Shown piece after piece: positions 21,317 through 64,000 of a DNA stretch of 64,000 bases. The translations under genes and the position numbers were made by a program. Positions within the stretch are counted from its first letter, which is position 1. Each line of letters opens with the position of its first letter. The notes beneath the pieces are model-generated. The model worked only from the letters and a program-made list of their open reading frames with translations, searched no databases and was not told the origin of the DNA. Source of the DNA: Escherichia coli (lineage in GTDB: Bacteria > Pseudomonadota > Gammaproteobacteria > Enterobacterales > Enterobacteriaceae). Where the stretch lies: the NCBI RefSeq assembly GCF_965641715.1, contig NZ_OZ282453.1. One strand, given 5' to 3'.

Positions 21317-21749
21317 TCCTTTATATTCAATGCATTAAGTTTGTTTTTGAGTGGTTTTGCCGTTTAAGGTAACGACGTTATAGATCCTATCAAAATCAAT
21401 CAATTCCATTCTGGTTTTGGAGAAAGATTTTTCGAGAGCTTCGGTCTTTAACTAAAACTGATTGCGTATAATCCCAATACCCCTCCCCGACTATCTGAAT
21501 GGTCGGGGAGGCACTTCAAGCACAAAATATCATCCCTGCGCCGTTGATTACTCTGCAGGTGAAGTCGGCCACTCAATATCAGGTGCAGTTGATGTATCAA
21601 CACGGTTCAGCAACACCCGATACTTTTTCCAGGTTGTTACCAGACTCACATTCGTTCATTAATATGTCCTGTGATTTGCGTGCGGTGAGGTAGCCTTTTC
21701 CCAACCTCACCATCATCCGGCAATTTGTATTTATCACAAACGGCCTGTA

Positions 21750-24152
21750 TCAGTTGTCTGTTGCACCAACCATACCCGCAAATTTGAGCCATTGTCCTGA
21801 TGGACTTCTGTTACCGCGGTAGTGATAAACAAGGATTGCATTTGTTACTCCACCATAGTCAGCTTTATGTGATGTGGTTAAGCGAATTGTATAATCACCA
21901 TCGGGCAGGTTAAAAACTTCAATTACAGTCCCTGCTAATTCAACCGCTCCAAACCCCGTTATATTGTTGATGCTGCCCGCATTGAATCCCATCATATCGC
22001 CAAAACCAATCCAGTACTTTTTGCTGAACGCACCATTTGACCTCAGGTGGTTAATAAATGTGGACATACTCATGCCCATTTCGCCGCCAGTTATGGCTGA
22101 TGTACGTACCGAAATACTTGGCAGAGCACTACTCTTCACATAAGAGCTCAGAAGATTTATGACTTCTGTTTTCGTATAAGCATTAACGTTAGCCGCAGTC
22201 AACGTTATATCCGCAGTGCCATCAAACTTCACACCAGCAATTTCCCTTGCAGTCTGCAATTTCGTGGCACTGGCTGCGTTACCCGTTGTATCCTGATTGC
22301 CTGCCGCATTCACCCCCGGGATCAAATCTTTTACTGTATAAATCTGCGCCCAGTCCGACTCAAACCCATACTCATCCCGTGAGGAACGATAAAACAGCCC
22401 ACCATTTTTATAATTGGCCCTGATTTGCAACGTCCGGCAACTTCCACCCCCTGTATAGAAGTTTGCAACAATATAGCTGCTGCCTGTCCGGGTGACATTG
22501 TATGCACCAGATTTGGCATTCCACGGAACGCCTCCCTCTGACTCTGCGTGCACACCGGACGATCCAAGAGCAAAAGCAGAGACATCTGCAGCGGACAGCC
22601 TGATGTCTGATTTCAATGCCTTACCATTCACCTTACGACCAGATGGAACCCGGTCATTTGCATTATCATTCACCGCTTTCACCGCCATTGGTGTTGCCGC
22701 CAGCGATTCACTGTCACTGTCCGTGGCACTGCTGAGCTGTACCACCCCCTTTCTCGTCGTGCTCGCATCCTCTAGCGCCACGGCAGATGCAATATCCTCT
22801 GCCCGTTTTGCTGCTGTCTCGGCACGCGTTGCTGCAGATTCCGACGTACTTTTGCTCTGAGCTGCCGCTGTCGCACTACCAGCTGCCTCTGTCGCCTTCG
22901 TGGATGCCGTCGTGGCACTGACCTTCGCCTCTGACGCCTGTCTTACCGCCTCATCTTTTGAAGCAGACGCCGATGATGCTGATGACGCCGCCGAACTGGC
23001 GGACGATGCGGCTGCCGTTTCTGAGGCTCCTGCGCGGGTTTCCGACGCTTTCGCATTCGTCTCAGATGTCTTCGCTGCGGAAGCAGAACTCGCAGCTGCA
23101 GTGGCCTGTTCAGTGGCTTCGCCAGCCTTCGTTGTGGCTGTTGAAGCGGACGATGCAGCGCTTTCTGCCGATTTTCCGGCGGCAGCGGCACTGGCTACAG
23201 CCTCCCCTGCCTTCACTGATGCCTCACGGGCCGATGATGCAGCCGCGGTTTCTGAGCCTGCCGCAGCTGAGGCACTCTGTCCCGCTGCCGTTTCAGAAGA
23301 CCTGGCGTTCGTCTCGGACGTTTTTGCCGCTTTCGCGGAATTGCCTGCCGCTGTTGCCGAGGAAGCTGCGCTACTGGCGCTCGAGGATGCGTTCGTTTCT
23401 GATGATTTTGCCGCCTCTTTTGAAGCCGCCGCATCCCGGGCTGAGGTGGCAGCTTCTGACGCTTTCGTAGTCGCGGTGGATGCAGAAGTGGCTGCTGATT
23501 GTTGTGACGCTGCCGCATTCGTTTCTGACGTTTTCGCGGCACTGGCACTGGTAGCTGCCGCGCTTTTTGAGGACTCTGCAGCGGCAGCACTTTTTGATGC
23601 TTCAGTGGCCTTTGTTGATGCCGTTCCTGCGCTGGAAGTCGCTGACTGAGCCGACGACGCGGCCTGTCCGGCTGACGTGCTGGCTGCGCGTGCTGAGTCC
23701 GCAGCATCAGTCGCATGGGTTGCCGCCTCACGGGCTGATGTGCTGGCATCACTGGCTGACTTCTTCGCGGCTGCCGTGTTCTGTGCCACCACGGACGCGT
23801 TACGCGCCACCTCTTCCACCATCAGCTCAAAACGGCGCAGTGCCTCCGGACGGGCATCATCCTCCGTCATGGCACCGAGAAAATCATTCAGCGTACCGGG
23901 TCGGGAATCTTCATACACGGTGATGGTCCCGGCATGTGACGGCGGGAATCCTTCCACCAACAGAATAACGCTGTACTGACCGTACTCAACGTCCATGCTG
24001 TAACGCCCGGCTTCATCCGGATTTTCTGAGGCCAGCGTGTTCACCACCACCGTGGTACTGTTACGTTTTGCTTTCAGCTGGATTGTGCAGTTCTGTACCG
24101 GTTTTCCTGTGCCGTCTTTCAGTACACCTGAAATCTTTACTGCCATATTCAC
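21750..24152 (-). CDS. Phage tail fibre protein with Ala/Ser-rich repetitive shaft
   Basis: 800 aa; N-terminus MNMAVKISGVLKDGTGKPVQNCTIQLKA; long low-complexity repeat region; follows lom as the lambda side tail fibre does. Confidence 0.8.
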   Translation of the reverse strand: MNMAVKISGVLKDGTGKPVQNCTIQLKAKRNSTTVVVNTLASENPDEAGRYSMDVEYGQYSVILLVEGFPPSHAGTITVYEDSRPGTLNDFLGAMTEDDARPEALRRFELMVEEVARNASVVAQNTAAAKKSASDASTSAREAATHATDAADSARAASTSAGQAASSAQSATSSAGTASTKATEASKSAAAAESSKSAAATSASAAKTSETNAAASQQSAATSASTATTKASEAATSARDAAASKEAAKSSETNASSSASSAASSATAAGNSAKAAKTSETNARSSETAAGQSASAAAGSETAAASSAREASVKAGEAVASAAAAGKSAESAASSASTATTKAGEATEQATAAASSASAAKTSETNAKASETRAGASETAAASSASSAASSASSASASKDEAVRQASEAKVSATTASTKATEAAGSATAAAQSKSTSESAATRAETAAKRAEDIASAVALEDASTTRKGVVQLSSATDSDSESLAATPMAVKAVNDNANDRVPSGRKVNGKALKSDIRLSAADVSAFALGSSGVHAESEGGVPWNAKSGAYNVTRTGSSYIVANFYTGGGSCRTLQIRANYKNGGLFYRSSRDEYGFESDWAQIYTVKDLIPGVNAAGNQDTTGNAASATKLQTAREIAGVKFDGTADITLTAANVNAYTKTEVINLLSSYVKSSALPSISVRTSAITGGEMGMSMSTFINHLRSNGAFSKKYWIGFGDMMGFNAGSINNITGFGAVELAGTVIEVFNLPDGDYTIRLTTSHKADYGGVTNAILVYHYRGNRSPSGQWLKFAGMVGATDN
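22895..23825 (-). repeat. Imperfect tandem coding repeats inside the tail fibre gene (peptide units containing KTSETNA / SSASSA)
   Basis: KTSETNA and KSSETNA units recur at least four times in the translation; many long antisense ORFs in this interval are a by-product. Confidence 0.6.
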
Positions 24153-24210
24153 CCCACAAAAAAGCCCGCCTGAACCGGCGGGCTGTCATAACACTGTGTT
24201 ACCTGGCTAA

Positions 24211-24810
24211 TCAGAATTTATAACCGACACCCACGATGAAACCGTCAGTGCGCCAGTCACCACTGCCGGAGCCTTCATAAGCGACATCAATGGCCACGGA
24301 TTCGGTCGGGTTAAACTGCACGCCAGCCCCCCACGCCAGAGACGTGTTGCTGTGGCGACCGTCATCACTTCCGGTCAGCACGTCGTGCGTTTTCCCCTTG
24401 TTATCAGTTACGCGGAGATAATCCCCGGAAAAAGTCGACACACGGCTGTAAGCCACACCCGCCATCGCATACGCGCTGAACCATTCATTCACGCGCACAG
24501 ACGGCCCCGCCATCACGCTGAACCAGCGGTTACGCACGGAATCTTCATGCCAGCGGGTATCGCTGTAACGGGTCAGCTGGCGATTCTTGTCTCCTGCATA
24601 GCTGAACGACGTCACCATCCCCAGTGTGTCCGTAAACTCATAACGGTATTTCACGTTAATCCCGTTCAGATCATCGCTGCCGGGGACGTTCGTCGAGGCA
24701 TGAAGATAGCCCGCGCTCAGCGTGGACTGATGTTCAGACGCCCATGCAGGCGCACAGGATGCGGCCAGACAAATGGCTGCGGACAAAATGGCGGCATAAA
24801 GTTTACGCAT
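24211..24810 (-). CDS. lom: Lom-like outer-membrane beta-barrel protein
   Basis: 199 aa; signal peptide MRKLYAAILSAAICLAASCAPAWA; C-terminal aromatic residue; position between J and tail fibre. Confidence 0.85.
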   Translation of the reverse strand: MRKLYAAILSAAICLAASCAPAWASEHQSTLSAGYLHASTNVPGSDDLNGINVKYRYEFTDTLGMVTSFSYAGDKNRQLTRYSDTRWHEDSVRNRWFSVMAGPSVRVNEWFSAYAMAGVAYSRVSTFSGDYLRVTDNKGKTHDVLTGSDDGRHSNTSLAWGAGVQFNPTESVAIDVAYEGSGSGDWRTDGFIVGVGYKF

Positions 24811-24879
24811 AATTACCTCTCGCTTTTCTGCAATAAAAAAGGCACCATTTCTGGTGCCCTTATCTGGGTTATAAATATT

Positions 24880-35830: not shown

Positions 35831-36276
35831 TTGCTTAAGACCTCATCAATAGCCTGATTCATTCGCTGTATGGCAACCTGCGCCGCCAGTTCTTCTGTCG
35901 TATCAAACGCCGGACGAATGAACGGGTGAGCAGGCATGTTTACCGTTCCCAGTTCGACAAAGCGCCAGTAAAACGCATTTCGGGGATCGCTGGCTTTCAT
36001 GCTGTTATCACTGTTTCCGGTTCGCAGATTTCGTCCACGAATGTGGACACCCGAGATAATTTCCCCCCGACGTTTTGATCGCTGAGTGAGAACAACCACA
36101 TTTTTCTTCAGTTTTCCGGTTCGCTCCGGCGCTCGCTCAACAACCGCATCCCGCATAGCTTCAGCACCGGCACGGGTGGCATCGCGCAGTACCTTATTGT
36201 TTTCTGCCCTGCTGAGCGTCTCCAGATCCCGTGCAATATCCGCCAGACCTGAAAAATCAAGACTGAAATCCATCAC
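35827..36276 (-). CDS. Head-tail joining protein (HK97 gp10-like / gpZ-like)
   Basis: 149 aa; order in the head-tail module. Confidence 0.55.
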   Translation of the reverse strand: MMDFSLDFSGLADIARDLETLSRAENNKVLRDATRAGAEAMRDAVVERAPERTGKLKKNVVVLTQRSKRRGEIISGVHIRGRNLRTGNSDNSMKASDPRNAFYWRFVELGTVNMPAHPFIRPAFDTTEELAAQVAIQRMNQAIDEVLSK

Positions 36277-36611: not shown

Positions 36612-36619
36612 GAATCCCC

Positions 36620-36925: not shown

Positions 36926-36936
36926 TTGGGCAACCT

Positions 36937-48000: not shown

Positions 48001-48011
48001 CCTTTATCGCT

Positions 48012-49254: not shown

Positions 49255-49317
49255 GCTGTCTGCTCTCCGGTTTTAACGTTGATGGTTACGCTTGTTTACA
49301 CCCTTACGGTGAAATTC

Positions 49318-49442
49318 TGCGGGTTATAATCGCACTTTTGCGGGTTATAACTGCCGTTTTGCGGGTTACGTGCGGGTTATTGATTTCCTTTTTATTCATA
49401 CAGTTAATGCACTTATATACATGATAACCCGCATAACCCGCA
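49318..49442. repeat. Iteron cluster A (candidate satellite replication origin): four direct TGCGGGTTAT-like copies, an AT-rich spacer, two inverted copies
   Basis: Direct copies at 49318, 49339, 49359, 49371; inverted ATAACCCGCATAACCCGCAA at 49423-49442; immediately 3' of the primase gene. Confidence 0.65.
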
Positions 49443-49464
49443 ACTTTTCACCTCACACAGGGGG

Positions 49465-51588: not shown

Positions 51589-51899
51589 TTTGCCTTTCCC
51601 CGTTCACGAATAATTTCACGTACTGCCTTAATGCGTTCCATTCCTGTAACGCGCATGATTCTGTCGATGTCGCTTAATTCTGCTGGTGGTGCTTTACTTA
51701 CCAAGGTGAACTCCCTGTCAAAGCGCATATGTGACGACACGCAGGGATGCGCATAACCTTCGCGGATATAGGTCACACGAAAATCATCGACGGTTTTGAT
51801 CGTTATCGTGCTGCCGTATTTATCCTGGAAAATATCGCCGGGGCGGATTTCAGGCCGAGCGGGGCCGCTGGCAGTAAAGCCAGAATTTTTCTTTTTCAT
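51585..51899 (-). CDS. Hypothetical protein
   Basis: 104-aa ORF directly upstream of and overlapping the primase start. Confidence 0.45.
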   Translation of the reverse strand: MKKKNSGFTASGPARPEIRPGDIFQDKYGSTITIKTVDDFRVTYIREGYAHPCVSSHMRFDREFTLVSKAPPAELSDIDRIMRVTGMERIKAVREIIRERGKAK

Positions 51900-51904
51900 G
51901 TTTT

Positions 51905-52153
51905 TTACTCCAGAGGCAGCTTTTTAGCGGCGAGCTCAATATCAGATGTCAGAGAAACCTGTGTATTTGCCAGGTCTAACAACAAAGAAATAAGAATTTC
52001 TTCTCTGCTATCGGATTTATCGGTGCTAAGGCTGTTCATCCACATATTGACGACTTCCCTGATTTTTTTCGCAGAGTGCAGGGCTTCAAATGCCAGGTCT
52101 TCAATATCATGTTTATTTCGCATAATCGCCCCCGCCATTTTCACAATCAGCAA
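51905..52153 (-). CDS. Hypothetical small protein
   Basis: 82-aa ORF. Confidence 0.35.
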   Translation of the reverse strand: MLIVKMAGAIMRNKHDIEDLAFEALHSAKKIREVVNMWMNSLSTDKSDSREEILISLLLDLANTQVSLTSDIELAAKKLPLE

Positions 52154-52358
52154 TCAGGATGGCTTTTGCCTCATTCAGCGCCATATCAGCACTAAATTGC
52201 ATAACAGCCAGTGAGTGAGGAACGAAAGCCCCGGCATATTCTGTTTCGCTGGTGGCGTGCTTATGCGCCTTGTCTGCGATAACAGAAATATCAATCAGCG
52301 CGTGCATCAGCGTTTTGATGGCTTCGGCGGCTGCGTCCGGACGGGTGTTATTGCACAT
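52113..52358 (-). CDS. Hypothetical small protein
   Basis: 81-aa ORF. Confidence 0.35.
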   Translation of the reverse strand: MCNNTRPDAAAEAIKTLMHALIDISVIADKAHKHATSETEYAGAFVPHSLAVMQFSADMALNEAKAILIADCENGGGDYAK

Positions 52359-52554
52359 GGCGCACCTCCTGACGAATACGGGCAGCGAATACCATCACGC
52401 AGCCAGCCGGGGATTGCTGGCGTGCTTCCTGTTCGCTAGTGGCCTCAATGGTAATCACACGCGGTTGTGCCGTGCTCAGGGCGATAAAACGCCAGATGTA
52501 TTTATTCAGGTTGTGCGAGTCCCGCCCTTGCGGGTGTGTGGTATGATTTAACAT
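52348..52554 (-). CDS. Small Icd-like protein (putative host cell division inhibitor family)
   Basis: ATG at 52554 with GAGGT ribosome-binding site 7 nt upstream; 68 aa ending ...SEQEARQQ...FAARIRQEVRHVQ; family assignment is from memory. Confidence 0.45.
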   Translation of the reverse strand: MLNHTTHPQGRDSHNLNKYIWRFIALSTAQPRVITIEATSEQEARQQSPAGCVMVFAARIRQEVRHVQ

Positions 52555-52750
52555 AGCTACCTCGATAATCTTGCTATCGTTGGTGGTTAGAAGCCCGGTT
52601 AGTGTTAGCGCACTGCCGGGTTTCGTCGTTTGTATTTCAATAAAACCATTGGTGTGTTTCATGTTATTTTGGAGTGAAACACACGTCAAGCCTTTTTTGT
52701 ATTTCTTTTTTGTGTATACTGAAACACACCAAATTTGAGGAGTTTCAGTT

Positions 52751-53056
52751 ATGGCGACTACCAACAAAAACGCTAAATCACAATTGACCACCGTCAGAGT
52801 CCCCCACGATGTTATGGAGGGCATGGAATCCGTAAAACTGGACGGCGAAAGCAACGCCGGATTCATAGTAACCGCCATGCGCGGTGAGATCGCCCGCCGC
52901 CAGGCAGAAGGAAGCGGAGAAAATCCCCTGGTTTCTTCGCTCGATGCACTGGCGCAGGTGGAAAAAATTGGAGTCAAGGCTGCCGAGGAGATCGGGCAAC
53001 TCGTCACCGTCGCGCGTGAAGAACTCCAGCGACGCAAGGTCAAAGAGCAGGAATAG
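52751..53056 (+). CDS. Putative transcriptional regulator, divergently transcribed
   Basis: ATG at 52751 with GAGGA ribosome-binding site 9 nt upstream; 101 aa; only confident plus-strand gene in the satellite. Confidence 0.55.
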   Translation: MATTNKNAKSQLTTVRVPHDVMEGMESVKLDGESNAGFIVTAMRGEIARRQAEGSGENPLVSSLDALAQVEKIGVKAAEEIGQLVTVAREELQRRKVKEQE

Positions 53057-53113
53057 CCACTATCAGCGCCATAGTTTGAGGAACGCAGGCGCATTGCTTT
53101 ACAGGACAGCACC

Positions 53114-53293
53114 ATGAGCGACACAGAATCAACCAAAACACCATCACCAACTCGTAAGAGACGACGCAAAAATATAGCGCATGAACATGAATCAGAAAGA
53201 TTCGCACCTTGTTCGTTTGCTCTTGAGAAATTCCTTAAAGAGCACAGGAAAAAGCTCTCGTTGCAAACCTTGGAACGAACCAAATCTGACTGA
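53114..53293 (+). CDS. Small basic protein (possible)
   Basis: 59-aa ORF MSDTESTKTPSPTRKRRRKN... below the ORF-track cutoff; followed by terminators. Confidence 0.3.
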   Translation: MSDTESTKTPSPTRKRRRKNIAHEHESERFAPCSFALEKFLKEHRKKLSLQTLERTKSD

Positions 53294-53358
53294 TCACATT
53301 GCCCACCAGCCGCAAATGTGGCATTGTTGGTGATGCTTTTGTTTTCCCTTGTTCCCAC

Positions 53359-53388
53359 TGGCGACCCTTTTGCGGTCGCCTTTGTTTT
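53359..53388 (+). terminator. Rho-independent terminator of the plus-strand cassette
   Basis: Hairpin GGCGACC-cttttgc-GGTCGCC followed by TTTGTTTTG; a second hairpin plus T-run at about 53484-53515. Confidence 0.45.
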
Positions 53389-53673
53389 GCCTGTTATCCG
53401 GCAATAGTGGCGCTTCGTCACCTGTCTGATATAATTCCACAGCTTATATTCATTTTTTGCGCAGTAGGTTAATTGTTCGCAAGGGCGCTCCGGCAACGGG
53501 GCGCTTTTTGTTTTTACCCACCAGCACAATAAAAATCTTCATTTTCCATTTTTGTAAAATTTCATGCTTTCCGGACGACTGGTCATATGTCATTTTTTAG
53601 CAGAAGATTTTGCCTTGCTGGTGGGTAGCTTCCCGGTCAACACGATGTACCGTATAATCAACACCGCGTGTGG

Positions 53674-54252
53674 TTACTGAATACGCTCACCAAAGTAAAA
53701 CTCAGGCTGGTATTCACGTATCAGCCTTTTTTCTTCTTCCTCCAGCTCACGCTTTTTGCGCTTACATGCCTGTAGCTCCCTCCCCTTCTCACTGGCACTT
53801 ATCTGGTATTGCTCTTTGCGGCGGGAAAAATCCTGTAATGCGCCCCACGGGATACCATAAGCCCCCGTTTTTCTGATACCCGGTATCACATTTCTGAATA
53901 CCCAGTTACTGAAACGATGAGCAAATGTGCCAGGCGTCGTTGCTTTGCGGCTGCGGGCTATTAGTTTGTAGAAACCTGACTCGGAGATAATGCTCATATT
54001 CTGATTTCCTCCGGGGGTGTAAGTTAAATTTACTCCCTTTTCGTCATCATCAAGCATCTGCAACGCCGTACGCGAATTGGTCAATTCCAGCGCAGCACAA
54101 ACATCCTTTGCAACAAACCACGGATCGCCGTTTAGATACACCACACGAACATCCACGCCATCAAAGCGCAGAACGACCAGATCACGAATATCACAGAATT
54201 TTTTCACATGACGTGCGTCACCCTTGCCCGTCACGGCAATATTTTTATTCAT
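53674..54252 (-). CDS. Bro-N domain protein (antirepressor-like)
   Basis: 192 aa; Bro-N pattern RVVYLNGDPWFVAKDVCAALEL...ISESGFYKLIARSRK; C-terminal charged coiled coil. Confidence 0.65.
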   Translation of the reverse strand: MNKNIAVTGKGDARHVKKFCDIRDLVVLRFDGVDVRVVYLNGDPWFVAKDVCAALELTNSRTALQMLDDDEKGVNLTYTPGGNQNMSIISESGFYKLIARSRKATTPGTFAHRFSNWVFRNVIPGIRKTGAYGIPWGALQDFSRRKEQYQISASEKGRELQACKRKKRELEEEEKRLIREYQPEFYFGERIQ

Positions 54253-54309
54253 TGCTTTTTACCTCACATACAAAAAACCCCGCATTGCGTGGTGCGGGGT
54301 TGTCGGTAA

Positions 54310-54588
54310 TTACTTATTGGCGTTTTTGTATGGGCTGTTTACTTCCTTTACTCCTGGCGGATGCATAACCCACCAGAGCACATCAGAGAGCAACCAGGAA
54401 ACAGACACTTTCCCTAAATGAGCACGAGCAGGAAATGCTCCCTCCTGTTCAAGTACCCAACGTCTGCTTCTTGAAAGCCCGGTACGATTGGCACACTCAT
54501 GTTCGCGTATACGGCGATCATACGGTTCGCCATGATCTTTCAGAATCTGAATGCGTTCTTCGGGTGTAGGATAAATAAATTTTTGCAT
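54310..54588 (-). CDS. AlpA-like HTH regulator (second copy)
   Basis: ORF 54310-54618; HTH region ECANRTGLSRSRRWVLEQEGAFPARAHLG. Confidence 0.5.
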   Translation of the reverse strand: MQKFIYPTPEERIQILKDHGEPYDRRIREHECANRTGLSRSRRWVLEQEGAFPARAHLGKVSVSWLLSDVLWWVMHPPGVKEVNSPYKNANK

Positions 54589-54651
54589 AAAAATATCACC
54601 TATAAAAAAACCCGCCAAAAGACGGGTTGATTATATCTCATTTAATTTAGC

Positions 54652-54822
54652 TCAGGGTTTCCATTCACCTTTTACCCATTCCAGCACCTCAGATAAGCGC
54701 CAGACTTTTGTTTGTGGGCCAATACATATTTTTCGTGGAAATTTTCCTTCCTTTTCAAGTAACGATCTGTGTCTCCTGCCAAGAGCGGTTAACCATGCAC
54801 ATTCATCCTCCTTAATCATCCT
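54652..54822 (-). CDS. alpA: AlpA-family excisionase/regulator
   Basis: ORF 54652-54885; HTH WLTALGRRHRSLLEKEGKFPRKICIGPQTKVW; directly downstream of int. Confidence 0.65.
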   Translation of the reverse strand, partial: RMIKEDECAWLTALGRRHRSLLEKEGKFPRKICIGPQTKVWRLSEVLEWVKGEWKP

Positions 54823-54850
54823 GTCGATTGTTTCATCATTTTCAAGTTCT

Positions 54851-56074
54851 TCACGCGTAACTATTTGAATCATTACTGTCACCACTAATTTGCTTATTCA
54901 GATAGTCGTACCACCAGTTCATAGCTTCTTTTTTTCTGTCCATATACTGGCTTCTGTTATAAACCCCGGCAACACCGCCTAATGTGTGCCCAAGCAACTG
55001 TTCAACCACATTATGTTCAAAACCATGATCACTTAGTTTTGTGGCAAACACTCTTCGCATATCATGCGCCGTCCATTTCTCCGAGTGTTTCATCCTTTTC
55101 CATGTCTTACCGATAGTTACGCTTGCCGTACACTGACGCATATCAAACCCAATCACATTTTCTTTGTTACCTGTTATTTTTTTTAACGTAACTAACCAGT
55201 TAAACATGCCATCAGGAATCGGTCTGATTATTTCCCTGCCATTTTTGCTATGATCAGCGGGAACGCGCCATAATTTCTTATCAAAATCCCACTCTACCCA
55301 GGACGACAGTAATACTTCTGACAGTCGACAACCAAAAACTACCAGGAAACGTAAAATAATTCGGTTTTCATATGATAATTCGTGATTGTCATAATCAGTA
55401 TTAATACTTCGCCATAAATCTCTGATTTCATCATCTGTTAAAACCCTGCTTCTTCGCGCAGACTTTTTTCCCACATCACAGACCTCAAGATCATCAATTT
55501 CATGACTAATCGCGTATTTTCTTACCCTACAAAATTTAAGCGCCTGTTTTGATATACGCAACAAAGCTCCGGCCTGTACAGGTGCTACTTTTTTTATTTT
55601 GTCAAAACACTTAATCCACATAGATATAGAGCAATCACTAAGTGGTACATGACCAATCACCGGATAAATATGTTTACCAAAGCACTGCCTGATATGTTCT
55701 GCTCCCCTACGCTTATCCATTGCATAATTATCAAGCCAGTATTCAAGTGCCTCACGAACGGTAACAGGTTGCAAGGTGGCTTCCCGTTCAATTTTTATCT
55801 GAATCCGTGGATCTCTGCCCTCCGCAAGCCAGGTTCGACACTGATCGCGCATCTCTCTCGCTGATTTGAGACTCAGATCAGGATATTTTCCAAGTGTCAG
55901 CCAGATGGGCGCGGTTCCCCTTCCCGCCAGTCTGTAAAAGAAAACAAAACTAACACATCCGTATTTACTGACCCGTACCGAAAGCCCGTTACCATCAGCG
56001 ATGGTTTCCTGCCTCTCACTCCTGCGCCCAAGCAGGGAACGAAGTTTTTTATCGCTCAGTTTGTTTAGCGCCAT
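54851..56074 (-). CDS. int: Tyrosine integrase, P4 type
   Basis: ORF 54851-56110; likely start MALNKLSDKKL; arm-binding N-domain; catalytic C-domain with HxxR and terminal Tyr region. Confidence 0.9.
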   Translation of the reverse strand: MALNKLSDKKLRSLLGRRSERQETIADGNGLSVRVSKYGCVSFVFFYRLAGRGTAPIWLTLGKYPDLSLKSAREMRDQCRTWLAEGRDPRIQIKIEREATLQPVTVREALEYWLDNYAMDKRRGAEHIRQCFGKHIYPVIGHVPLSDCSISMWIKCFDKIKKVAPVQAGALLRISKQALKFCRVRKYAISHEIDDLEVCDVGKKSARRSRVLTDDEIRDLWRSINTDYDNHELSYENRIILRFLVVFGCRLSEVLLSSWVEWDFDKKLWRVPADHSKNGREIIRPIPDGMFNWLVTLKKITGNKENVIGFDMRQCTASVTIGKTWKRMKHSEKWTAHDMRRVFATKLSDHGFEHNVVEQLLGHTLGGVAGVYNRSQYMDRKKEAMNWWYDYLNKQISGDSNDSNSYA

Positions 56075-56093
56075 GTGATTTATAACCCGTTTT

Positions 56094-56116
56094 TGCAATA
56101 CACAGTGCAATACACA
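56094..56116. repeat. Tandem TGCAATACACAG x2 near the satellite right end; candidate integrase arm site
   Basis: Same motif as 41271-41292; 20-40 bp upstream of the int start. Confidence 0.45.
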
Positions 56117-56245
56117 AATGATGAAAACAGCCAGAACCTTCCAGAAAAAACAAAAACGACGAACAAGAAAAAATCTTTTTCTTTCATTTGGTTACTAAAA
56201 AAATCAGGACAGGTCGCACTGTTGTTACGGCGTGATGTTACTTTC

Positions 56246-57273
56246 TTTGTGAAAAAATTCACCCGCGCCGAGACCTGCTCCTTCGCCTTTTTCGCCAGAC
56301 GACGCAGATCATCCCAGCGTTTACAGATGCCCAGGCCGGGATTCGCTTTCTGCCAGACCGTTTCATCAAACGGATCATCTCCCTCATCGAGCGTGTAAAT
56401 GATCGCAAAGTAAGAGTCGTCTTTTACCGCGCCCTCCACGTCACTGTTATAGCCACGCAATACCTTAATGGCGTAATCACGCTGCTCGTAACAAATCCCT
56501 TCCTTGTTAAACCCTGCCGTGGTGATACCAAATAAAAGGGACTGCAGACGGGCACCGGTTGCCGTTTCCAGAACGTCCCACACGTCACGGGTTTTATGTG
56601 CATGCAGCTCATCAATAATGGCGCAGTGGATGTTCAGACCGTCCAGGTTGTTTGCATCCGAGGAAAGCGGTTCAAATTTTGATGCGCTCTGCTCCTGGTA
56701 GATCGCCAGCTTGTTGAAATCAAATAACCGCCCGAGTGTCGACCGGGCTTTTCTGACCATATTTTTGGCGTCTTCAAACACGATTCTGGCCTGGTCACGC
56801 GTGGTTGCGGCTGAATACACCTCAGCTCCACCTTCACCATCTGCCCCCGTCATATACAGGCCGATACCCGATGACAGAGTTGATTTTGCGTTTTTACGGG
56901 CGACTTCGTTGTACGCCGTCCGGAACCGGCGCACCATCACCGGACGTCCGCTGCCATCGCTGCGCATGACAACTTCCCCGGTCTCTTCATTCACCAGCGG
57001 AATGACAAAACCAAAAATATTAATGAGGATAAATACATGCCAGTCCATCAACTCAATGGGCTGGCCTGCCAGCGCCCCTTTTACATGAGGCACAAATTTG
57101 TAGAAATTCAGGATGTGCTGCGCACGGGGTTCACTGAAATAAATCCCCCGCTCTTCGCCGTACTTCAGATCATCAAGAAAACGCTGGCAGGCCAGACGGA
57201 CAAATTCCCCAGCAACAATTTCTCCTGCAACAACACGTTCGGCGTAGCGGATCCCGTCAGCCACTTTTGCCAT
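56246..57273 (-). pseudogene. Prophage terminase large subunit, N-terminal fragment (about 343 codons), interrupted by the satellite
   Basis: ORF 56080-57273; terminase ATPase region through ...ARVNFFTKK, then non-terminase read-through into satellite DNA. Confidence 0.8.
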
Positions 57274-57755
57274 CAGTCTCTCGCTTTTAAAAGCTCTGCC
57301 AGCGGATCAACATCATCCGGTCCGGCGATATTTACTTTCGCCCGGCTTGCCGGTGACATACCAAACTCTGCAAGCATTGCCCGGATCCGCTTCCAGGCAT
57401 CCGCTTTCATTGCCGCCGCGGGGTGCGCCTTAATCAGTACATCACCGCTCTGCGTTTCCGTGCGGTAGGTATACCCCTCAACATCGAGTGTTTCGCAGTG
57501 ATGCCGATATTCGGTGTAGGCTTCCACCAGCAACTCGAGCGCACGCGCATCAAGCTGAGAAATGATCCCTTCCGCATTCAGCTCTTCCGCCATTCGCCTG
57601 AACCAGTACTTCCCCTGAGCCCCTAAATGCTGCGGAATTTTAGGAAGACCTTTTTCATCCTTTTTAGCGGTTTTTTTGGGGTCTTTAACGGGGCGCTTTG
57701 AGGGATTGCCTCGTATCAAATGCAGGCGTGGCGGGGTTTTCGGAGGTCCTGACAT
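57273..57755 (-). CDS. Terminase small subunit, P27-like (prophage copy)
   Basis: 160 aa; overlaps terL start by 1 nt. Confidence 0.8.
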   Translation of the reverse strand: MSGPPKTPPRLHLIRGNPSKRPVKDPKKTAKKDEKGLPKIPQHLGAQGKYWFRRMAEELNAEGIISQLDARALELLVEAYTEYRHHCETLDVEGYTYRTETQSGDVLIKAHPAAAMKADAWKRIRAMLAEFGMSPASRAKVNIAGPDDVDPLAELLKARD

Positions 57756-57903: not shown

Positions 57904-58254
57904 TCAATTGATGCGTTCGCGTGCTGTTTTTGCTTTATGACAGGGGCAGCACAGACTCTGCAGGTTACTGTCTGCATCCGTGCCACCATGAGCTTTCGGA
58001 ATGATGTGGTCCACAGTTCTGGCTTCAACGGCTCTCCCATTGCGCATGCAGTTCTGACACAGATGATTATCACGCTTCAGTATGCGCGCACGTATGGCAT
58101 CCCATTTCGAGCCATAGCCACGCTGGTGGCGGCTCAGTCCGCGCTGATGCTGTACCCATCCTTCGCCACGATGTTTATCGCAGTAACCAGAACTGTCTGT
58201 GGTTGTACCTGCACATCCACGCTTACGGCAGGCGCGGGGGATTTGTGATGGCAT
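57904..58254 (-). CDS. HNH endonuclease (prophage copy)
   Basis: ORF 57904-58290; VDHIIPKAHGGTDADSNLQSLCCPCH. Confidence 0.8.
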   Translation of the reverse strand: MPSQIPRACRKRGCAGTTTDSSGYCDKHRGEGWVQHQRGLSRHQRGYGSKWDAIRARILKRDNHLCQNCMRNGRAVEARTVDHIIPKAHGGTDADSNLQSLCCPCHKAKTARERIN

Positions 58255-58296: not shown

Positions 58297-58479
58297 TCAG
58301 TTCTGCAGACACTGCCGGACACTATCAACAATTTCGCAGACCTGAGAAGCTGTATCGAAAAGCTGACGCGCCTTATCCAGGCTGACGCATCCCGCCAAGA
58401 AAAAAGGCACCAGTATCGCTACCAGTGCCCATTTCGCCGCCACTCGTGGCATTCTGTGTGTCCAGTGTTTTCTGCTCAT
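58297..58479 (-). CDS. Spanin-like lipoprotein (Rz1-like)
   Basis: About 60 aa with signal peptide and LAGC lipobox; directly after the endolysin. Confidence 0.45.
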   Translation of the reverse strand: MSRKHWTHRMPRVAAKWALVAILVPFFLAGCVSLDKARQLFDTASQVCEIVDSVRQCLQN

Positions 58480-58493: not shown

Positions 58494-58877
58494 TCAGCGT
58501 TTCAACTGAAAGTGAGGCCCGTCTTTCAGTGTTTTCCAGTCCCCGCCCCATTCGATGGCAGTTCCCAGCTCTGCGGCAGCCTGCTTAAATGCCTGCGCGA
58601 TTTTCTCGTACAGAGCCCAGTCCCATGACACCTGGCTGCCAACGTAAGCCACAACATCCACCGCATCACCGGTCAGGTGACGACTGTTCATGGTCTGGCT
58701 CTTGCCTTCTGCAACCAGCTGTTTCTGGCGTTCTTTCGTGCGCAGGCCTTCCGTAATACCGAAATCAACCTCCGTCAGCTCCAGCGCACGGCGAACCACG
58801 GCAACCAGCTGTGGTTTGACGCCCTCCAGATTCTTTTCGCTGCGACGACTAAATCTGAATTTACCCGACATATTCAC
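58494..58877 (-). CDS. Endolysin, peptidase M15 family
   Basis: 127 aa; HLTGDAVD and GGDW motifs. Confidence 0.75.
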   Translation of the reverse strand: MNMSGKFRFSRRSEKNLEGVKPQLVAVVRRALELTEVDFGITEGLRTKERQKQLVAEGKSQTMNSRHLTGDAVDVVAYVGSQVSWDWALYEKIAQAFKQAAAELGTAIEWGGDWKTLKDGPHFQLKR

Positions 58878-59149
58878 CTCAACAATGGAAAGATTTTTGT
58901 GACGTTCCCGCGTGCGCGTATTACCAGTACGCAGAACAACAGATTAAAAAACACGACCAGCCAGTTACCGGGAAGAATGGTGCCACAGAGAAAGGCAAGT
59001 GGCGGAAGCGCATATACCGTCATCAACAACCAGGCCAGCCATGACATCAGCGGTTTGTGTCTGGAGTCACGACGGCGATAAAAAAAGAGCGTCGGCACGA
59101 TAAACGAGCACAACGCCACATTCAGCAATCCGGGAAGGTTATTTAACAT
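58874..59149 (-). CDS. Small multi-pass membrane protein (holin or antiholin candidate)
   Basis: About 92 aa with three hydrophobic helices; between holin candidate and endolysin. Confidence 0.45.
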   Translation of the reverse strand: MLNNLPGLLNVALCSFIVPTLFFYRRRDSRHKPLMSWLAWLLMTVYALPPLAFLCGTILPGNWLVVFFNLLFCVLVIRARGNVTKIFPLLR

Positions 59150-59531
59150 TGCCGCCTCCTCCGCCCCGCAGGCGGGAGAACAGGCCGGACACCAGTGATG
59201 CAATATCCTGCTGGTGGATGAACGACAGAATCTTTACCGACACCACTGACACCAGTACTGCACACAATGCGTCAACAGGTGCACCGTCAAACCCTGTATG
59301 CTTTACCAGCCAGGACGCCAGAACCTCTGCGCCCAGCACGCCGATAATGAACGACACAAGAAAATGCGCCACCACACGCCAGGCTGAAAGCGCCTGCGGC
59401 ATCGTTGCCACAAATAACGCCCCGGCGAACGCACCAAACACAATCCCGAAATCCGTTCCGGTAAACAGCCCGAAGACCGTCGCTCCACCGAGCGCCGCAG
59501 CCGTGCCGGAACCGGATAAGGGTTCAGACAT
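59139..59531 (-). CDS. Holin-like membrane protein
   Basis: ORF 59139-59654; likely start MSEPLSGSG; Gly/Ala-rich TM helices; first gene of the lysis cassette. Confidence 0.5.
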   Translation of the reverse strand: MSEPLSGSGTAAALGGATVFGLFTGTDFGIVFGAFAGALFVATMPQALSAWRVVAHFLVSFIIGVLGAEVLASWLVKHTGFDGAPVDALCAVLVSVVSVKILSFIHQQDIASLVSGLFSRLRGGGGGNVK

Positions 59532-59896
59532 ACTTTTTCTCCTGTAAATAAAAAAGGGCCACCAGCGGCCCGTAAAAAACACCCCGTCAAAAGCACCGGC
59601 ATCCGCAGATGCCCTTTGTGTGGCGTTATTTGATGCGCACCAGATGTGGCGCAAAGAAATGAAATAAGACTTACCGAAAATTAAGGTTAATTTGAGGATT
59701 TAAACCACTTCTGAAGCTTAGTAGTATGAACATGTCCCCGGAAGGGGGCCAATACTTATTATTCTTCATGGACTTTGTCCCGCGGTCTTAATCCGACGAC
59801 CGCGCTACTTTTTACCCTCTCGCAAATTGCTATCTAAAGGACGTTGTCCCACGAGTATTCCTGGATGCTCGTGTCTTTTTTTGTCCTGAGAAAGGA

Positions 59897-59923
59897 ATAA
59901 AAAAAACCGCCAGATATGGCGGT
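59897..59923 (-). terminator. Rho-independent terminator between the tRNAs and the lysis cassette
   Basis: Hairpin ACCGCCA-gata-TGGCGGT followed by a T8 run on the minus strand. Confidence 0.45.
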
Positions 59924-60858
59924 TGGTCAATGCAAGGGATGAATTTTTTAATTGTTATTAAACCGAGGCGCCGGGTGCCTCCCGAAGTATTCCGTGCTGT
60001 ATGGATACTGTGGTTTCCCGCTAAACCGACTCTATAAACCACCCTCGCGCTGAGGAACGCCCCAATTCATGTTTTTCAACACAGAGAAGCGCATCACTGG
60101 TTACTCAACGCTAAATCCGGCTTCCTGTCGTGGGCAATGCGCCATTTCTGTGTCATAAAAAAATACAGCACTGAATCCGTAACCGATCTCCATTACAGAA
60201 TGAGGCCCAACAAAGGAATTAACGAGATCTGTTCCTCACAAAAAACGCCAGTGCTGTAAAAACTCATCAAAGAACAATGAAGGTACGGAGAACAGGAATC
60301 GAACCAGTATCACTAACCTAAAAGGCTGAAGTAATAGCCACTGTACGATACCTGTATATAGAGCGGGCCTCCGTAACCACAGTAATGATACTATAACAAT
60401 ATGATTAAACGGATGCCAGCAATGACCCGCGAGGCAGCTGGTCATGCGCCAGTGAACACAGACTCGCTGCCTTTTGGGTCGGGAGTAATATTACCGATAA
60501 ATCATATGACATCAAAAAATAATTGGTTTTAAGATTTTAATATGTGTATAAATATGTATCAGATAAATACAAATTATTTTATTTCATCCAGAATTCTGAT
60601 TTTACGCAAGAGATTGCTAAAAAATAACACAAACATGATCAGTTTGGGAACAAACCAATTCCGTTGTCGCAATAAATAACAGGAAATACTCCGGGAACAA
60701 CGGAGCGCAAGAATTACATCAGCAGTGGTTTTTGTAACGTTTAACGTTAATTGTATCGTTGATAGAAAAGCTTTGACGCAATATAGTGAACTAACAGGGC
60801 CTGACGAATAGCCCTATTACGCCGAGCTAATAGCGCTGCCAGCTAAACTTGCATGGAA

Positions 60859-60935
60859 TGGTCCGCCACCGAGGACTCGAACCTCGCACCATCAACTTAG
60901 AAGGTTGATGCTCTATCCCGATGAGCTAGTGGCGG
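60859..60935 (-). tRNA. tRNA-Arg (anticodon UCU)
   Basis: Folded by hand: acceptor CCGCCAC/GTGGCGG, anticodon loop CT-TCT-AA, T-loop TTCGAGT, 3' ACCA. Confidence 0.85.
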
Positions 60936-60936
60936 T

Positions 60937-61012
60937 TGGTGGCCCTTGCTGGATTTGAACCAGCGACCTGGCGATTATGAGTCGCTCGCTCTCACCACTG
61001 AGCTAAAGGGCC
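60937..61012 (-). tRNA. tRNA-Ile2 / Met-like (anticodon CAU), ileX/ileZ-like
   Basis: Reverse complement GGCCCTTTAGCTCAGTGG...GACTCATAATCGC...GGTTCAAATCC...GGGCCACCA; near-identical in layout to E. coli ileX. Confidence 0.85.
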
Positions 61013-61221
61013 GGGCGCAGGATAATAACGTTACAAAATCAATGTTGCAAGCATTCAAAAATCACCTGGTTAAAAATCCCCCTTACTTCCTCCACCAGCG
61101 CATTCACCATGTCTATCCGAGATAAGTGGCACAAAAAACCCGCATTTCGGCGGGTTTTGTTTGCTTTTGCCATCACGTACAAAATCGGCAAAATATCAGA
61201 TTTGCGTGAAATATATGCCTT

Positions 61222-61917
61222 TCAATCTACTTTTGCAACACTTTGCTTTGAAAATGCCGCCTTTTGTTTTGAACGCGTTCTCATTACAAACAATAAAGCC
61301 CCACTATCCAGTCGGTAAAAAATGTGTTTCATTGCAACCCAGTGACGAGTAAATGTTTTGGACCAGTTTTTAGTTGTCACTCCCGCCAGTAATGCCAGCT
61401 CCTGGTATTCATAACCTTCCCCACCAAAAAGTTCTGCTTTTACTGCCTGCGCCGCCAGCCAGATTAATTTTTTCAGGCGTTCCTGCGTTTTCCCTGCAAT
61501 TTTTCTGGTACCGGATTGAGTATTAAATTCATTCCACGCCCACTGTGTTATCGCGATCTGATATTCCCAACAAATACTCCCGCTGTAACACCACAACAAC
61601 CAGGCTTTATGATGTTCTTCAAGAGACAGAACAGCCCGCCGCCACGATGATGTCGAAAACTCAACCGGACTGACCAGAGGAATTGACGTCCCCTTCGCCA
61701 GCGATTGCTTTCCCGGAATTGGTGGATTATCCCGCGTTATCATTTTTCCAGTCACTTCATCGCGGTACCGGATTTTTTTTCGCCTGTAACGCCCTGTATC
61801 GAACATGGCATTCTCTTGCCAGGCTTCAAGCTGACCTTTTGTTGCCCCACTCAAATCAGCGGTGGCGATAATGAGCTGCTCACGCACAAACTGTAAATAC
61901 TGGTTATTCATGCGCAC
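61222..61917 (-). CDS. Late-gene antiterminator Q-like protein (putative)
   Basis: 231-aa ORF directly upstream of the tRNAs and lysis cassette and downstream of rusA. Confidence 0.5.
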   Translation of the reverse strand: MRMNNQYLQFVREQLIIATADLSGATKGQLEAWQENAMFDTGRYRRKKIRYRDEVTGKMITRDNPPIPGKQSLAKGTSIPLVSPVEFSTSSWRRAVLSLEEHHKAWLLWCYSGSICWEYQIAITQWAWNEFNTQSGTRKIAGKTQERLKKLIWLAAQAVKAELFGGEGYEYQELALLAGVTTKNWSKTFTRHWVAMKHIFYRLDSGALLFVMRTRSKQKAAFSKQSVAKVD

Positions 61918-62273
61918 TCCAGTTCTGTGATTTTTATCCCCAGCCGCCCACCAGGAACGAGCTGACCGCGCACAATATTGATTTCATCAAACTGCTCGTC
62001 GTCTATAAGTAGTCCGGCATGCGTCAGCGCATCCAGTGGTGCCTTCAGGATATTGTCCAGGTCGCGGCGGCGCTTATCCGGTGGCTCTGCAATAATCTTT
62101 ATCGCCAGCCTTCCGGACAGGCTTAATTTCAGCCGCTGCTGGCGAACAATTAGCGCCACATCACGGCGATAACGCTTTCCGGCTTCCGAGATGAAATACG
62201 TATTGCCATGACGTCGCCAGTAGGTATTCACCGTCGGCGGGTAAGGCAAAACAAATTCTATGCGTTCAGTCAT
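61908..62273 (-). CDS. rusA: Holliday-junction resolvase RusA
   Basis: 121 aa; RusA motifs PPTVNTYWRRHG and DKRRRDLDNILKAPLDAL. Confidence 0.8.
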   Translation of the reverse strand: MTERIEFVLPYPPTVNTYWRRHGNTYFISEAGKRYRRDVALIVRQQRLKLSLSGRLAIKIIAEPPDKRRRDLDNILKAPLDALTHAGLLIDDEQFDEINIVRGQLVPGGRLGIKITELECA

Positions 62274-63329
62274 TCATGCTTTCCACTTCAGGACACCCGA
62301 ATTTCTCGCGTGCATTAAAAAACGAATCAGCAACAACAGCTGGCTGCCGTGTTTTTCTTCAAAATCTTTTACCCCGGCGTGCAGTTCGTTATGACATTTA
62401 CGGCACAGCGGAATAACAAACAAATCATCAGCCTTTGTTCCCATCCCTCCCAGTCCATGACCAATGATGTGATGCGGATCATCTGCCTGATTACCGCACG
62501 TCATGCATTTCTGCGTTTTTACCCAACGCGTGTATACAGGCATCTCTTCCCGTTGTGGTTTCTGGCGCTGGAGATACTGAGCCGGTGACTCCGGATCAAC
62601 GGCAATGCTGACCACCGTCTTTTCCTGTGGCGGGTTTTGCTGGTGGGCGTGAGGCAGCGGCGCAAGATTTTTTGTGCACTGCTTCAGTATGCTGGTGGCG
62701 GTCTGCTCTCCCGGTACGATGTCGCTTTCACGGTACATTGGGCGGATTTTTTCCGCACGCAACCCCAGCGAACGACGTAATACCGCTTCCGGTAGCGCGT
62801 CCGCCACCTGATTGCGGACCGCCCACCAGGATAATTCAGCCAGCGATAATTCCCGCTCCTGTGTGCCATTCATTGCGTGACGGATGACGTCAATCATCCA
62901 TGCTGACAGGTTTTGTTGAGCAAGTTGCCCGAGTGACTCTGATGTCTGGTCGCGCAGCTGGTTGTCACAGTGCCAGCACAATACCATCGCGCCAGTACCG
63001 TAACGATGTATGACGGTTTCACTGTGATGGTAGTCACCATGAGGCCACTGGCAGGATTTAATATGACGCAGGAGCCAGTCAGACAATGCGCCTGCGCCGC
63101 CAGCAGCACGAATCACCCGTTCGTCGCTGAAAAATGGCAGTAATGATTTATCTTCCATCAGTGGCTGGCGAACGGCAGGAACAATCCCGGATGGCAGACC
63201 GCGCATGCTTTTCGGTTCCGGCTCCACCAGCACTCGAGGGTTATGAAATACCTGCATGGATTCACGGCCCGGCTTTAGCACCACCAGCCCAAGTTCCGGT
63301 ACCGGAACAGGTCGAAGTAATACCCGCAC
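62274..63329 (-). CDS. DUF968 / YdfU-like phage protein with Cys-His zinc-finger-like motif
   Basis: 351 aa; CMTCGNQADDPHHIIGHG...CRKCHNELH. Confidence 0.55.
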   Translation of the reverse strand: MRVLLRPVPVPELGLVVLKPGRESMQVFHNPRVLVEPEPKSMRGLPSGIVPAVRQPLMEDKSLLPFFSDERVIRAAGGAGALSDWLLRHIKSCQWPHGDYHHSETVIHRYGTGAMVLCWHCDNQLRDQTSESLGQLAQQNLSAWMIDVIRHAMNGTQERELSLAELSWWAVRNQVADALPEAVLRRSLGLRAEKIRPMYRESDIVPGEQTATSILKQCTKNLAPLPHAHQQNPPQEKTVVSIAVDPESPAQYLQRQKPQREEMPVYTRWVKTQKCMTCGNQADDPHHIIGHGLGGMGTKADDLFVIPLCRKCHNELHAGVKDFEEKHGSQLLLLIRFLMHARNSGVLKWKA

Positions 63330-63330
63330 G

Positions 63331-63738
63331 TTACCTCCAGATCCGTTGCTGGAATGTGCGGGACGGACGCGGTGGGCGTTCGGAGTAAGGAAGCCTGACG
63401 GAGATTATCCAGTGACGATAATCGAGGCTGAGGGCTTTCTTAATCTCGTATCCGTGTCTGCGGTAGCACTGAATTAGCCATTCAGCTTGTTCTTCAGTAC
63501 ATGGGGGATGCTGGTACCAATCAGATTTAAATGCGTGAGAGCGCCGCCCGTGCCTGCTGGCAAAGACGGCTGAATTATCAGAATTGTGTAATTTGGTATC
63601 GTGCGCCATCGGTTGTCTCTGCTGGCGCAGCAGGTGCCAGTTGTTCAGGCTGGCGTGCGAATTGTAAACCAGAATGCCAGGAAAAAACAAAACCCGCCGA
63701 AGCGGGTTAAGTGCGGGTGCGTTGAGGATGCCTGACAC
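63331..63738 (-). CDS. Hypothetical nin-region phage protein
   Basis: 135-aa ORF; start uncertain. Confidence 0.35.
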   Translation of the reverse strand: MSGILNAPALNPLRRVLFFPGILVYNSHASLNNWHLLRQQRQPMAHDTKLHNSDNSAVFASRHGRRSHAFKSDWYQHPPCTEEQAEWLIQCYRRHGYEIKKALSLDYRHWIISVRLPYSERPPRPSRTFQQRIWR

Positions 63739-63776
63739 ATCAGAGGTGGCGAGGGATTTCTCCCCCGCCAGGTCTC

Positions 63777-63932
63777 TTACTCCTCAGGTTCGTAAGCTGT
63801 GAAGACAGCGACCCCCGTCTGGCCGGTTCGGATTCGTACCTCGCAGAGGTCTTTCCTCGTTACCAGTGCCGTCACAATGACGGTTAAACAGATGACGATC
63901 AGGGCGATTAACATCGCCTTTTGCTGCTTCAT
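63777..63932 (-). CDS. hok: Hok/Gef-family type I toxin
   Basis: MKQQKAMLIALIVICLTVIVTALVTRKDLCEVRIRTGQTGVAVFTAYEPEE matches Hok-family sequence; the longer 63777-63989 ORF corresponds to the overlapping mok frame. Confidence 0.8.
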   Translation of the reverse strand: MKQQKAMLIALIVICLTVIVTALVTRKDLCEVRIRTGQTGVAVFTAYEPEE

Positions 63933-64000
63933 AGCCTGCTTCTCCTTGCCTTTCGGCACGTAAGAGGCTAACCTAGATTTGCCGTTCATAGATTGAGCCT

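Follow-up and report, generated by a model that had tools for sequence, protein, structure and literature searches.

We analysed a 64,000-nucleotide stretch of the Escherichia coli contig NZ_OZ282453.1 (assembly GCF_965641715.1), hereafter the window, in which a lambdoid prophage integrated at potB carries a second mobile element within its gene for the large terminase subunit (terL). Both this nesting of two mobile elements and the exact insertion site are already known, and the locus contains nothing new structurally. An earlier annotation made from the letters alone (the first-pass annotation) did not recognise the catalogued configuration (PMC10111431) and described the prophage as doubly defective, with an interrupted terL and an in-frame stop in the tape-measure gene. 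We consider it likely that the composite is a known helper-embedded phage-inducible chromosomal island (HE-PICI) in a potB prophage, with a terL that can be restored and an amber codon that forms the lesion affecting tails. The description as doubly defective is accordingly retained for the amber codon and given up for the terL split, a site-specific integration whose in-silico empty site is identical to natural alleles.

A satellite within the terminase gene of a potB prophage

The interruption of terL by a satellite, as originally annotated, is confirmed by two Pfam TerL fragments lying 15 kb apart on either side of a complete integrase-to-terL element. The open reading frame (ORF) at 56080-57273 contains TerL_ATPase and positions 2-68 of the TerL_nuclease profile, and the ORF at 40459-41184 contains positions 64-283 of the latter. 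Insertion occurred at codon ~343 of the prophage gene (nuclease-profile position ~64-68), a site catalogued as A:Terminase_1:246. The sequence common to both junctions amounts to only 7 bp, TCACAAA. Joining the two halves in silico at this core yields a single TerL ORF of 585 aa, in which the expected restored junction reads ...GTGAATTTTTTCACAAAACACATGAATGTG..., and a 1200-bp query centred on this junction matches the uninterrupted terL of E. coli RM10740 with 100% identity. Among complete genomes carrying this terL, the gene is uninterrupted in 907 of 935.

HE-PICIs are known from 14 sites in prophage late genes, where they are co-oriented with the late operon, and their attP contains a doubled motif (tgTGTATTGCantgTGTATTGCa) that is unique to the family and located 81±2 bp upstream and 132±2 bp downstream of the centre (Tommasini, Mageeney and Williams, NAR Genomics and Bioinformatics 2023; PMC10111431). 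The supplementary tables of that study list ~15-kb E. coli A_Terminase_1_246 elements with the att identity tcacaaa inside ~57-kb potB composites. The insert in the window resembles these elements in its size of ~15 kb, its position in terL of a ~57-kb potB composite, its tcacaaa core and its doubled TGTATTGC motif at the published distances. The doubled motif TGTATTGCnnTGTGTATTGC has exactly two matches in the 64-kb window, with 0.00 expected from shuffled sequence. Compared with the listed member Eco14930.15.A_Terminase_1_246, the first 160 bp of attL are identical and attR differs by one SNP. What sets this copy apart from the listed HE-PICIs is a -1 frameshift in ssb and, in its helper, a private amber codon affecting the tape-measure gene.

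The insertion disrupts a late gene of the prophage, and the attP provides no replacement gene end. The zones of the satellite follow the HE-PICI order of integration, Bro, replication and late genes (int, two AlpA-like genes, BRO-N, Icd, DUF4222, primase, ssb, and capsid through terL), and its main genes are all co-oriented with the helper late operon on the minus strand. The satellite integrase is 50% identical over 398 aa, full length and without gaps, to that of the founding 11capE (strain NRG857c), and the AlpA-like protein next to it is 51% identical to its 11capE counterpart. On these comparisons the integrase would belong to the 11capE clade and, by its flanks, to a site-specific subclade.

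The element is also of satellite size and combines int, alpA and a primase with its own capsid and packaging set, as do capsid-forming PICIs (cf-PICIs). No tail or lysis genes were found within its 15,064 bp in the names given to relatives by the Prokaryotic Genome Annotation Pipeline (PGAP), in tblastn mapping or in PHROGs. The same content, with an own HNH-to-connector set, int, alpA, a primase and no tail or lysis genes, characterises the cf-PICI EcCIEDL933 (Alqurainy et al., 2022/2023; He et al., 2025), to which the satellite is likened by gene content, although it sits in a helper terL and not in a chromosomal site. Judged by its attachment sites and genes, the insert is an HE-PICI with cf-PICI gene content. 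Helpers of cf-PICIs are phages with HNH-dependent cos packaging (HNH, P27-type TerS and TerL; bioRxiv 10.1101/2022.09.08.507074, 10.1101/2025.02.11.637232), the type to which the outer element corresponds: this lambdoid prophage combines an HK97-type head and packaging module (HNH, P27-type TerS, TerL) with a tail of the lambda type.

Because the insertion has a 7-bp core, carries the attP arm motifs of the family and gives an in-silico empty site identical to natural alleles, the terL split should be a reversible site-specific integration and not decay. The exact 397-aa ORF that runs from the interrupted terL across the junction is listed in 945 blocks of the assembly index, among helpers with differing lysis modules that include lambda-type S/R/Rz and holin_8/M15 types (loci L008-L017), which fits repeated site-specific integration and not a one-off accident.

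An amber codon in the tape-measure gene

The second reported defect, an in-frame TAG in the tape-measure gene, is present at codon 607 of 1075, where both EC416 and RM10740 have CAG. Compared with the RM10740 allele, 3 of its 3228 nt and one codon are different. The product before the TAG comprises 606 aa, and the C-terminal 469 residues are lost; the downstream fragment of 464 aa contains the Tape_meas_lam_C domain. The TAG allele is absent from the 877 complete genomes that carry the segment (61-bp TAG-centred query, 100% match), and a programmed read-through or a conserved split tape measure was rejected on this count. The exact 606-aa and 464-aa fragments occur on two to three contigs in NCBI and Logan, including the draft GCA_965259455.1 and a 5.16-Mb chromosome, which makes a sequencing error unlikely as the source of the TAG. 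Judged by this distribution, the amber is a real, recent and clone-specific lesion with a predicted loss of function.

The tape measure of lambda-like tails has its C-terminal end at the tip complex, and amber mutants in H make no tails and are tight in non-suppressing hosts. Because 469 C-terminal residues, and with them the lambda-type C-terminal domain, are lost, failure of the tails is expected, as had been proposed, and the amber should block tail assembly. The prophage therefore carries what defines a defective one, an inactivating lesion in an essential gene, with its effect on tails predicted from the lambda analogy.

The remaining late genes visible in the window are full length. When 30 late-region and lysis proteins of RM10740 were tested, all 30 mapped without gaps and at full length onto the window, the tape measure differing only by the stop. 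The Lom-like protein and J, I, K, L and M are covered completely and without gaps at 94-100% identity (tblastn of RM10740 proteins), and the genes within 34032-40447 at 96-100%, also gapless. The head-closure ORF (36273-36611) is intact in the window, whereas the RM10740 copy is broken by IS3. Escherichia phages phi467, Evi and vB_EcoS-640R1 share 95-97% nucleotide identity with the prophage region from the C-terminal terL fragment to J, and their records lack a high-identity copy of the satellite; this likeness suggests a helper lineage of real phages that form particles.

Expected behaviour on induction and alternative readings

The tyrosine integrase of the satellite would have placed it at the 7-bp core in the helper terL, and while the satellite is integrated the helper should be unable to make TerL. 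For 11capE, quantitative PCR and deep sequencing revealed that the composite excises first and replicates, and that the satellite then excises precisely (PMC10111431). Following this course, induction would here lead to excision and then replication of the entire composite, after which Q-antiterminated late transcription would enter the satellite and allow expression of int and alpA. Strong terminator-like hairpins follow the AlpA-like genes (54628-54609 and 54301-54276), which a Q-modified polymerase is expected to pass. With Int and AlpA made, the satellite would excise precisely and restore the 585-aa TerL. Repair of terL by excision on induction, which the first-pass annotation had raised as one possibility, is the best-supported reading given the published HE-PICI model and the ORF restored in silico. 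Elements of active lysogeny (skin in sigK, phi10403S in Listeria comK) likewise split a gene, provide no replacement end and restore the frame upon precise excision; here, by contrast, the split gene belongs to the helper phage and the switch would serve the satellite and not the cell.

The satellite would package itself by means of its own HNH, TerS and TerL into its own small capsids and would require only tails from the helper, since cf-PICI and phage packaging are reported to be independent and such satellites, as known for EcCIEDL933, form their own small capsids and take only helper tails (bioRxiv 10.1101/2022.09.08.507074, 10.1101/2025.02.11.637232). We infer that the 57-kb composite would exceed a head that normally holds ~42 kb. 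Because the satellite carries its own HNH, TerS, TerL and capsid and would need only tails, the amber removes exactly what it needs, and both phage and satellite would be left without tails from this locus. With intact genes for heads, packaging, holins and endolysin, lysis of an induced cell could still take place and set free tail-less, DNA-filled capsids.

A replacement of the helper TerL by that of the satellite appears unlikely, as the two are 32% identical and phage and cf-PICI packaging are reportedly mutually exclusive. The TerL, portal and capsid proteins of the satellite are just 32-37% identical to their helper counterparts.

Several points weigh against this reading. The window ends before the prophage integrase, excisionase and most early genes. 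Experimental excision is available for 11capE (a capsid-gene site) only, so that excision at the terL site is deduced from family membership, and virions were not recovered from the model composite of the authors (PMC10111431). Low-level read-through of the amber, a host suppressor tRNA or re-initiation at a GTG four codons past the TAG could spare the tails. The composite may also simply be decaying, as the satellite ssb lesion and the tfa remnant would indicate.

One alternative is that the whole composite is inert and abandoned, with the ssb frameshift and further lesions beyond the window, so that nothing excises or replicates and the lysis genes have merely not yet degraded. Two private or lineage-specific lesions (the amber and the ssb -1 frameshift) in 43 kb of mobile DNA are in its favour, alongside host ORFs in the 21-kb flank that have the lengths annotated in a related genome; so are the tfa remnant, the RM10740 prophage with IS3 in its integrase and head-closure genes, and the many truncated helpers of HE-PICIs reported (PMC10111431). 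However, all visible essential late genes except the tape measure are full length, and the satellite int, AlpA-like genes, primase and entire capsid and packaging module are intact. The clonal assembly GCA_036953225.1, 100% identical to window positions 61001-64000, extends the prophage by a further 5 kb. This extension contains a complete 212-aa ORF for the cI-like repressor and gene calls for cro, ydaT, a replisome organiser and DUF977. The host single-stranded DNA-binding protein could plausibly replace that of the satellite. We regard an inert composite as rather unlikely.

A further possibility is that the composite produces only tail-less satellite capsids, which would become infectious after picking up the tails of unrelated phages. 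We judge it unlikely as a full account of the locus. Release of tail-less, DNA-filled capsids that later acquire tails of other phages has been described for cf-PICIs (He et al., bioRxiv 10.1101/2025.02.11.637232), and the earlier suggestion that the satellite is stranded was therefore too strong. If this possibility holds, loss of helper tails would be tolerated by an embedded cf-PICI, perhaps neutrally, and the satellite would not be stranded.

It is very unlikely that the TAG is harmless, whether as a base-calling error, through a host amber suppressor or through useful read-through or re-initiation, leaving the composite fully functional. The change is a single C-to-T in an otherwise near-identical gene, a glutamine-inserting suppressor would give the wild-type residue, the GTG downstream is preceded by AGGGG, and few copies of the tape measure are needed per tail. 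Against this, the truncated product recurs on contigs of different source including an independent Logan assembly, lambda H amber mutants do not leak in non-suppressing hosts, and the window holds no suppressor tRNA, ARAGORN and Rfam giving only a tRNA-Arg(TCT) and a tRNA with a CAT anticodon.

A dead remnant with two independent lethal lesions, in which the terL interruption would be irreversible pseudogenisation, is extremely improbable: the PGAP annotation of related genomes treats both terL halves as pseudogenes and helpers of such satellites are often truncated (PMC10111431), but the core at both ends, the arm motifs at exactly the published spacing, the intact integrase with two AlpA-like genes, the natural alleles matching the empty site and the recurrence of the junction ORF all argue against it.

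Occurrence in other genomes and further features of the locus

A split terL beside an integrase is easily scored as prophage decay, although it would represent a regulated and reversible HE-PICI insertion, and this matters mainly for annotation. The junction ORF is found very often in public E. coli assemblies and also occurs in a toxin prophage of the Stx2e/Stx2k type. In the latter (locus L009, GCA_036681055.1; 5286-6521 and 10001-12423), the same 397-aa junction ORF and the satellite integrase are found in a Shiga toxin prophage, and a toxin-converting prophage therefore carries the embedded satellite. The toxin A subunit of this locus, upstream of the same holin/M15 lysis cassette, has its best match in the Stx2e and Stx2k structures. 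A search of the literature library found no paper joining Stx2e with satellite terms. Recognition of an embedded satellite alters how the intactness and inducibility of a prophage and the mobility of toxin phages are judged. The amber itself is an ordinary strain-specific mutation, of wider interest only as a natural test of satellite spread via the tails of other phages. Two composites with the junction ORF are present on one chromosome, CP025676.1 (loci L012 and L013).

Features of the locus are listed in Table 1. Satellite genes were identified from the PGAP annotation of relatives (97-100% protein identity for most genes), tblastn mapping and PHROGs.

Table 1. Features of the prophage and its embedded satellite in the window, with the evidence for each.
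Feature	Positions	Strand	Evidence or remark
Prophage/chromosome att core, CACCTTCTTATTCA as read on the minus strand	21285-21298	-	Within potB 3' end; exact match to potB att identity block (Tommasini 2023, Supplementary Files 3 and 4)
tfa remnant (~30 C-terminal codons)	21548-21637	-	PGAP annotation of collinear EC416 and RM10740 regions; gap-free 96% alignment to RM10740
stf side tail fibre gene, 800-aa ORF	21750-24152	-	Pfam phage_tail_N; PHROG tail-fibre families at both ends; collinear with RM10740 (798 aa)
Lom-like outer-membrane protein	24211-24810	-	Full length; tblastn with RM10740 proteins
Tail tip gene J	24880-28377	-	Full length, tblastn vs RM10740
Tail tip gene I	28438-29040	-	Full length, tblastn vs RM10740
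Tail tip gene K	28977-29720	-	Full length, tblastn vs RM10740
Tail tip gene L	29725-30423	-	Full length, tblastn vs RM10740
Tail tip gene M	30423-30779	-	Full length, tblastn vs RM10740
Tape-measure gene, 1075 codons	30757-33984	-	Premature TAG at 32164-32166
Tail chaperones G and T, major tail protein, gp17-like, gp10-like, head closure protein	within 34032-40447	-	Full length
Head-tail connector, major capsid protein, prohead protease, portal, 60-aa ORF	within 34032-40447	-	Full length
Prophage terL, C-terminal fragment (nuclease domain)	40459-41195	-	Ends at core TCACAAA 41189-41195
Helper-embedded satellite, 15,064 bp including both cores	41189-56252	-	
Doubled attP arm motif cgTGTATTGCgcTGTGTATTGCt	41271-41293	-	79-81 bp from core centre
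Satellite TerL	41715-43376	-	
Satellite TerS	43360-43716	-	
Satellite HNH	44005-44445	-	
Satellite head-tail connector	44445-44744	-	
Satellite portal	44737-45951	-	
Satellite prohead protease	45953-46513	-	
Satellite major capsid protein	46568-47737	-	
Satellite ProQ-like	48251-48793	-	
Satellite ssb	48830-49254	-	-1 frameshift near 49019
Satellite DUF927 primase	49465-51588	-	
Satellite DUF4222	51585-51899	-	
Satellite Icd-like	52348-52554	-	
Satellite BRO-N	53674-54252	-	
Satellite AlpA-like genes, two	54652-54873 and 54310-54588	-	
Satellite int (tyrosine integrase)	54851-56074	-	
Doubled attP arm motif, second copy tTGTGTATTGCacTGTGTATTGCa	56095-56117	-	132 bp from core centre
Prophage terL, N-terminal fragment (ATPase domain and start of nuclease domain)	56246-57273	-	Ends at core TCACAAA 56246-56252
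P27-family TerS	57273-57755	-	Pfam Terminase_4; 100% identity to RM10740 protein
HNH endonuclease of prophage	57904-58254	-	Pfam HNH; 98% identity to RM10740 protein
60-aa lipoprotein ORF	58297-58479	-	phrog_7528 (function unknown), match over full length
M15 peptidase endolysin	58494-58871	-	Full length
Holin, Phage_holin_3_7	58874-59149	-	Pfam, full length
Holin, Phage_holin_8	59139-59531	-	Pfam, full length
Prophage tRNA-Arg(TCT) and tRNA(CAT)	60859-61012	-	
Antiterminator Q	61222-61911	-	
RusA	61908-62273	-	
DUF968	62274-63329	-	

Positions 1-21300 of the window are chromosomal, running from ymgF through icd, phoPQ and pepT to potAB with 99% identity to complete E. coli genomes, and the icd site within this flank is unoccupied. 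The outer element starts at the 3' end of potB, has its late genes on the minus strand and continues past position 64000. Its start had been placed at 21317; the att core, for which 0.02 chance matches are expected from shuffled sequence, instead sets the boundary within the potB 3' end, and prophage DNA begins at 21299, where it provides the final potB codons. The tfa remnant is found likewise in related prophages, and in lambda the side fibres can be dispensed with. The cI protein is matched exactly in 4698 assembly-index blocks. The 1.2 kb between the prophage tRNA genes and the first holin (59654-60858) contain no convincing ORF, and in relatives the equivalent slot carries cargo, namely TerB and DUF3927 in RM10740 and the Shiga toxin genes in L009.

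The lysis cassette had been reported as intact, including a spanin. Both holins and the M15 endolysin are indeed full length, and relatives share the layout, but in place of a spanin there is only the 60-aa lipoprotein ORF, which is called in most related loci and encodes a signal peptide, the lipobox LAGC and a 30-aa mature part with three cysteines. No spanin pair or unimolecular spanin was found after the endolysin, and no adjacent or overlapping ORF with a transmembrane start exists there in any frame. The lipoprotein could be o-spanin-like, without an i-spanin partner.

In the satellite, the capsid, protease, portal, connector, HNH, TerS, TerL, int, alpA and primase genes are full length with 97.5-100% protein identity (tblastn), and precomputed Pfam matches for identical neighbours comprise Terminase_4, TerL, Phage_capsid and Peptidase_S78. 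Relative to two relatives, ssb has a 1-bp deletion (GTAAGCCAGTGG to GTAAGCAGTGG) that shortens the ORF from 141 to 98 aa. Because the same deletion is present in GCA_036953225.1, it is evidently real and belongs to this lineage. IS1414, found within the EC416 satellite, is not in the satellite of the window, and no match to P4-like immunity RNAs (Rfam C4, isrK) reached the gathering threshold in the Bro zone. Among sequenced phage particles, the only match to the satellite was one of 76% in capsid and portal to a 16.5-kb record labelled 'induced prophage'.

A 393-aa ORF (52348-53529) was considered as a new satellite gene and rejected. Only its final ~92 residues match a family (the Icd-like/repressor PHROG), and the remainder overlaps both a YlcI-like gene on the opposite strand (52751-52924) and strong terminator hairpins of the plus strand (53360-53508); the long ORF is probably an artefact.

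The terL' ORF extends 54 codons into the satellite and ends at a TAA (56080-56082). The integrase ATG (56074) follows after 5 nt and lacks an obvious ribosome-binding site. For another genome (L018, 11876-14299), the gene caller gives an 807-aa TerL'-Int fusion. Translation of int may be coupled to that of the helper late genes. Because homopolymer lengths differ among family members, conservation of the terL'/int reading frame is not strict.

At the position homologous to the helper attB (42330-42375), the satellite's own terL reads CTCACCAAGCGA, with the core TCACCAA, which is one base off TCACAAA and resembles other catalogued cores (ttaccaa). Integration of the satellite into its own terL is probably avoided, as the flanks differ.

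A repeat cluster resembling an origin (41449-41646) lies between the satellite terL stop and attR. It consists of three direct TAACCCGCAA repeats at 21-22 bp spacing (41583-41635), three tandem inverted copies of TGCGGGTTA (41480-41505) and an AT-rich palindrome (41449-41482), and could be the replication origin or packaging site of the satellite.

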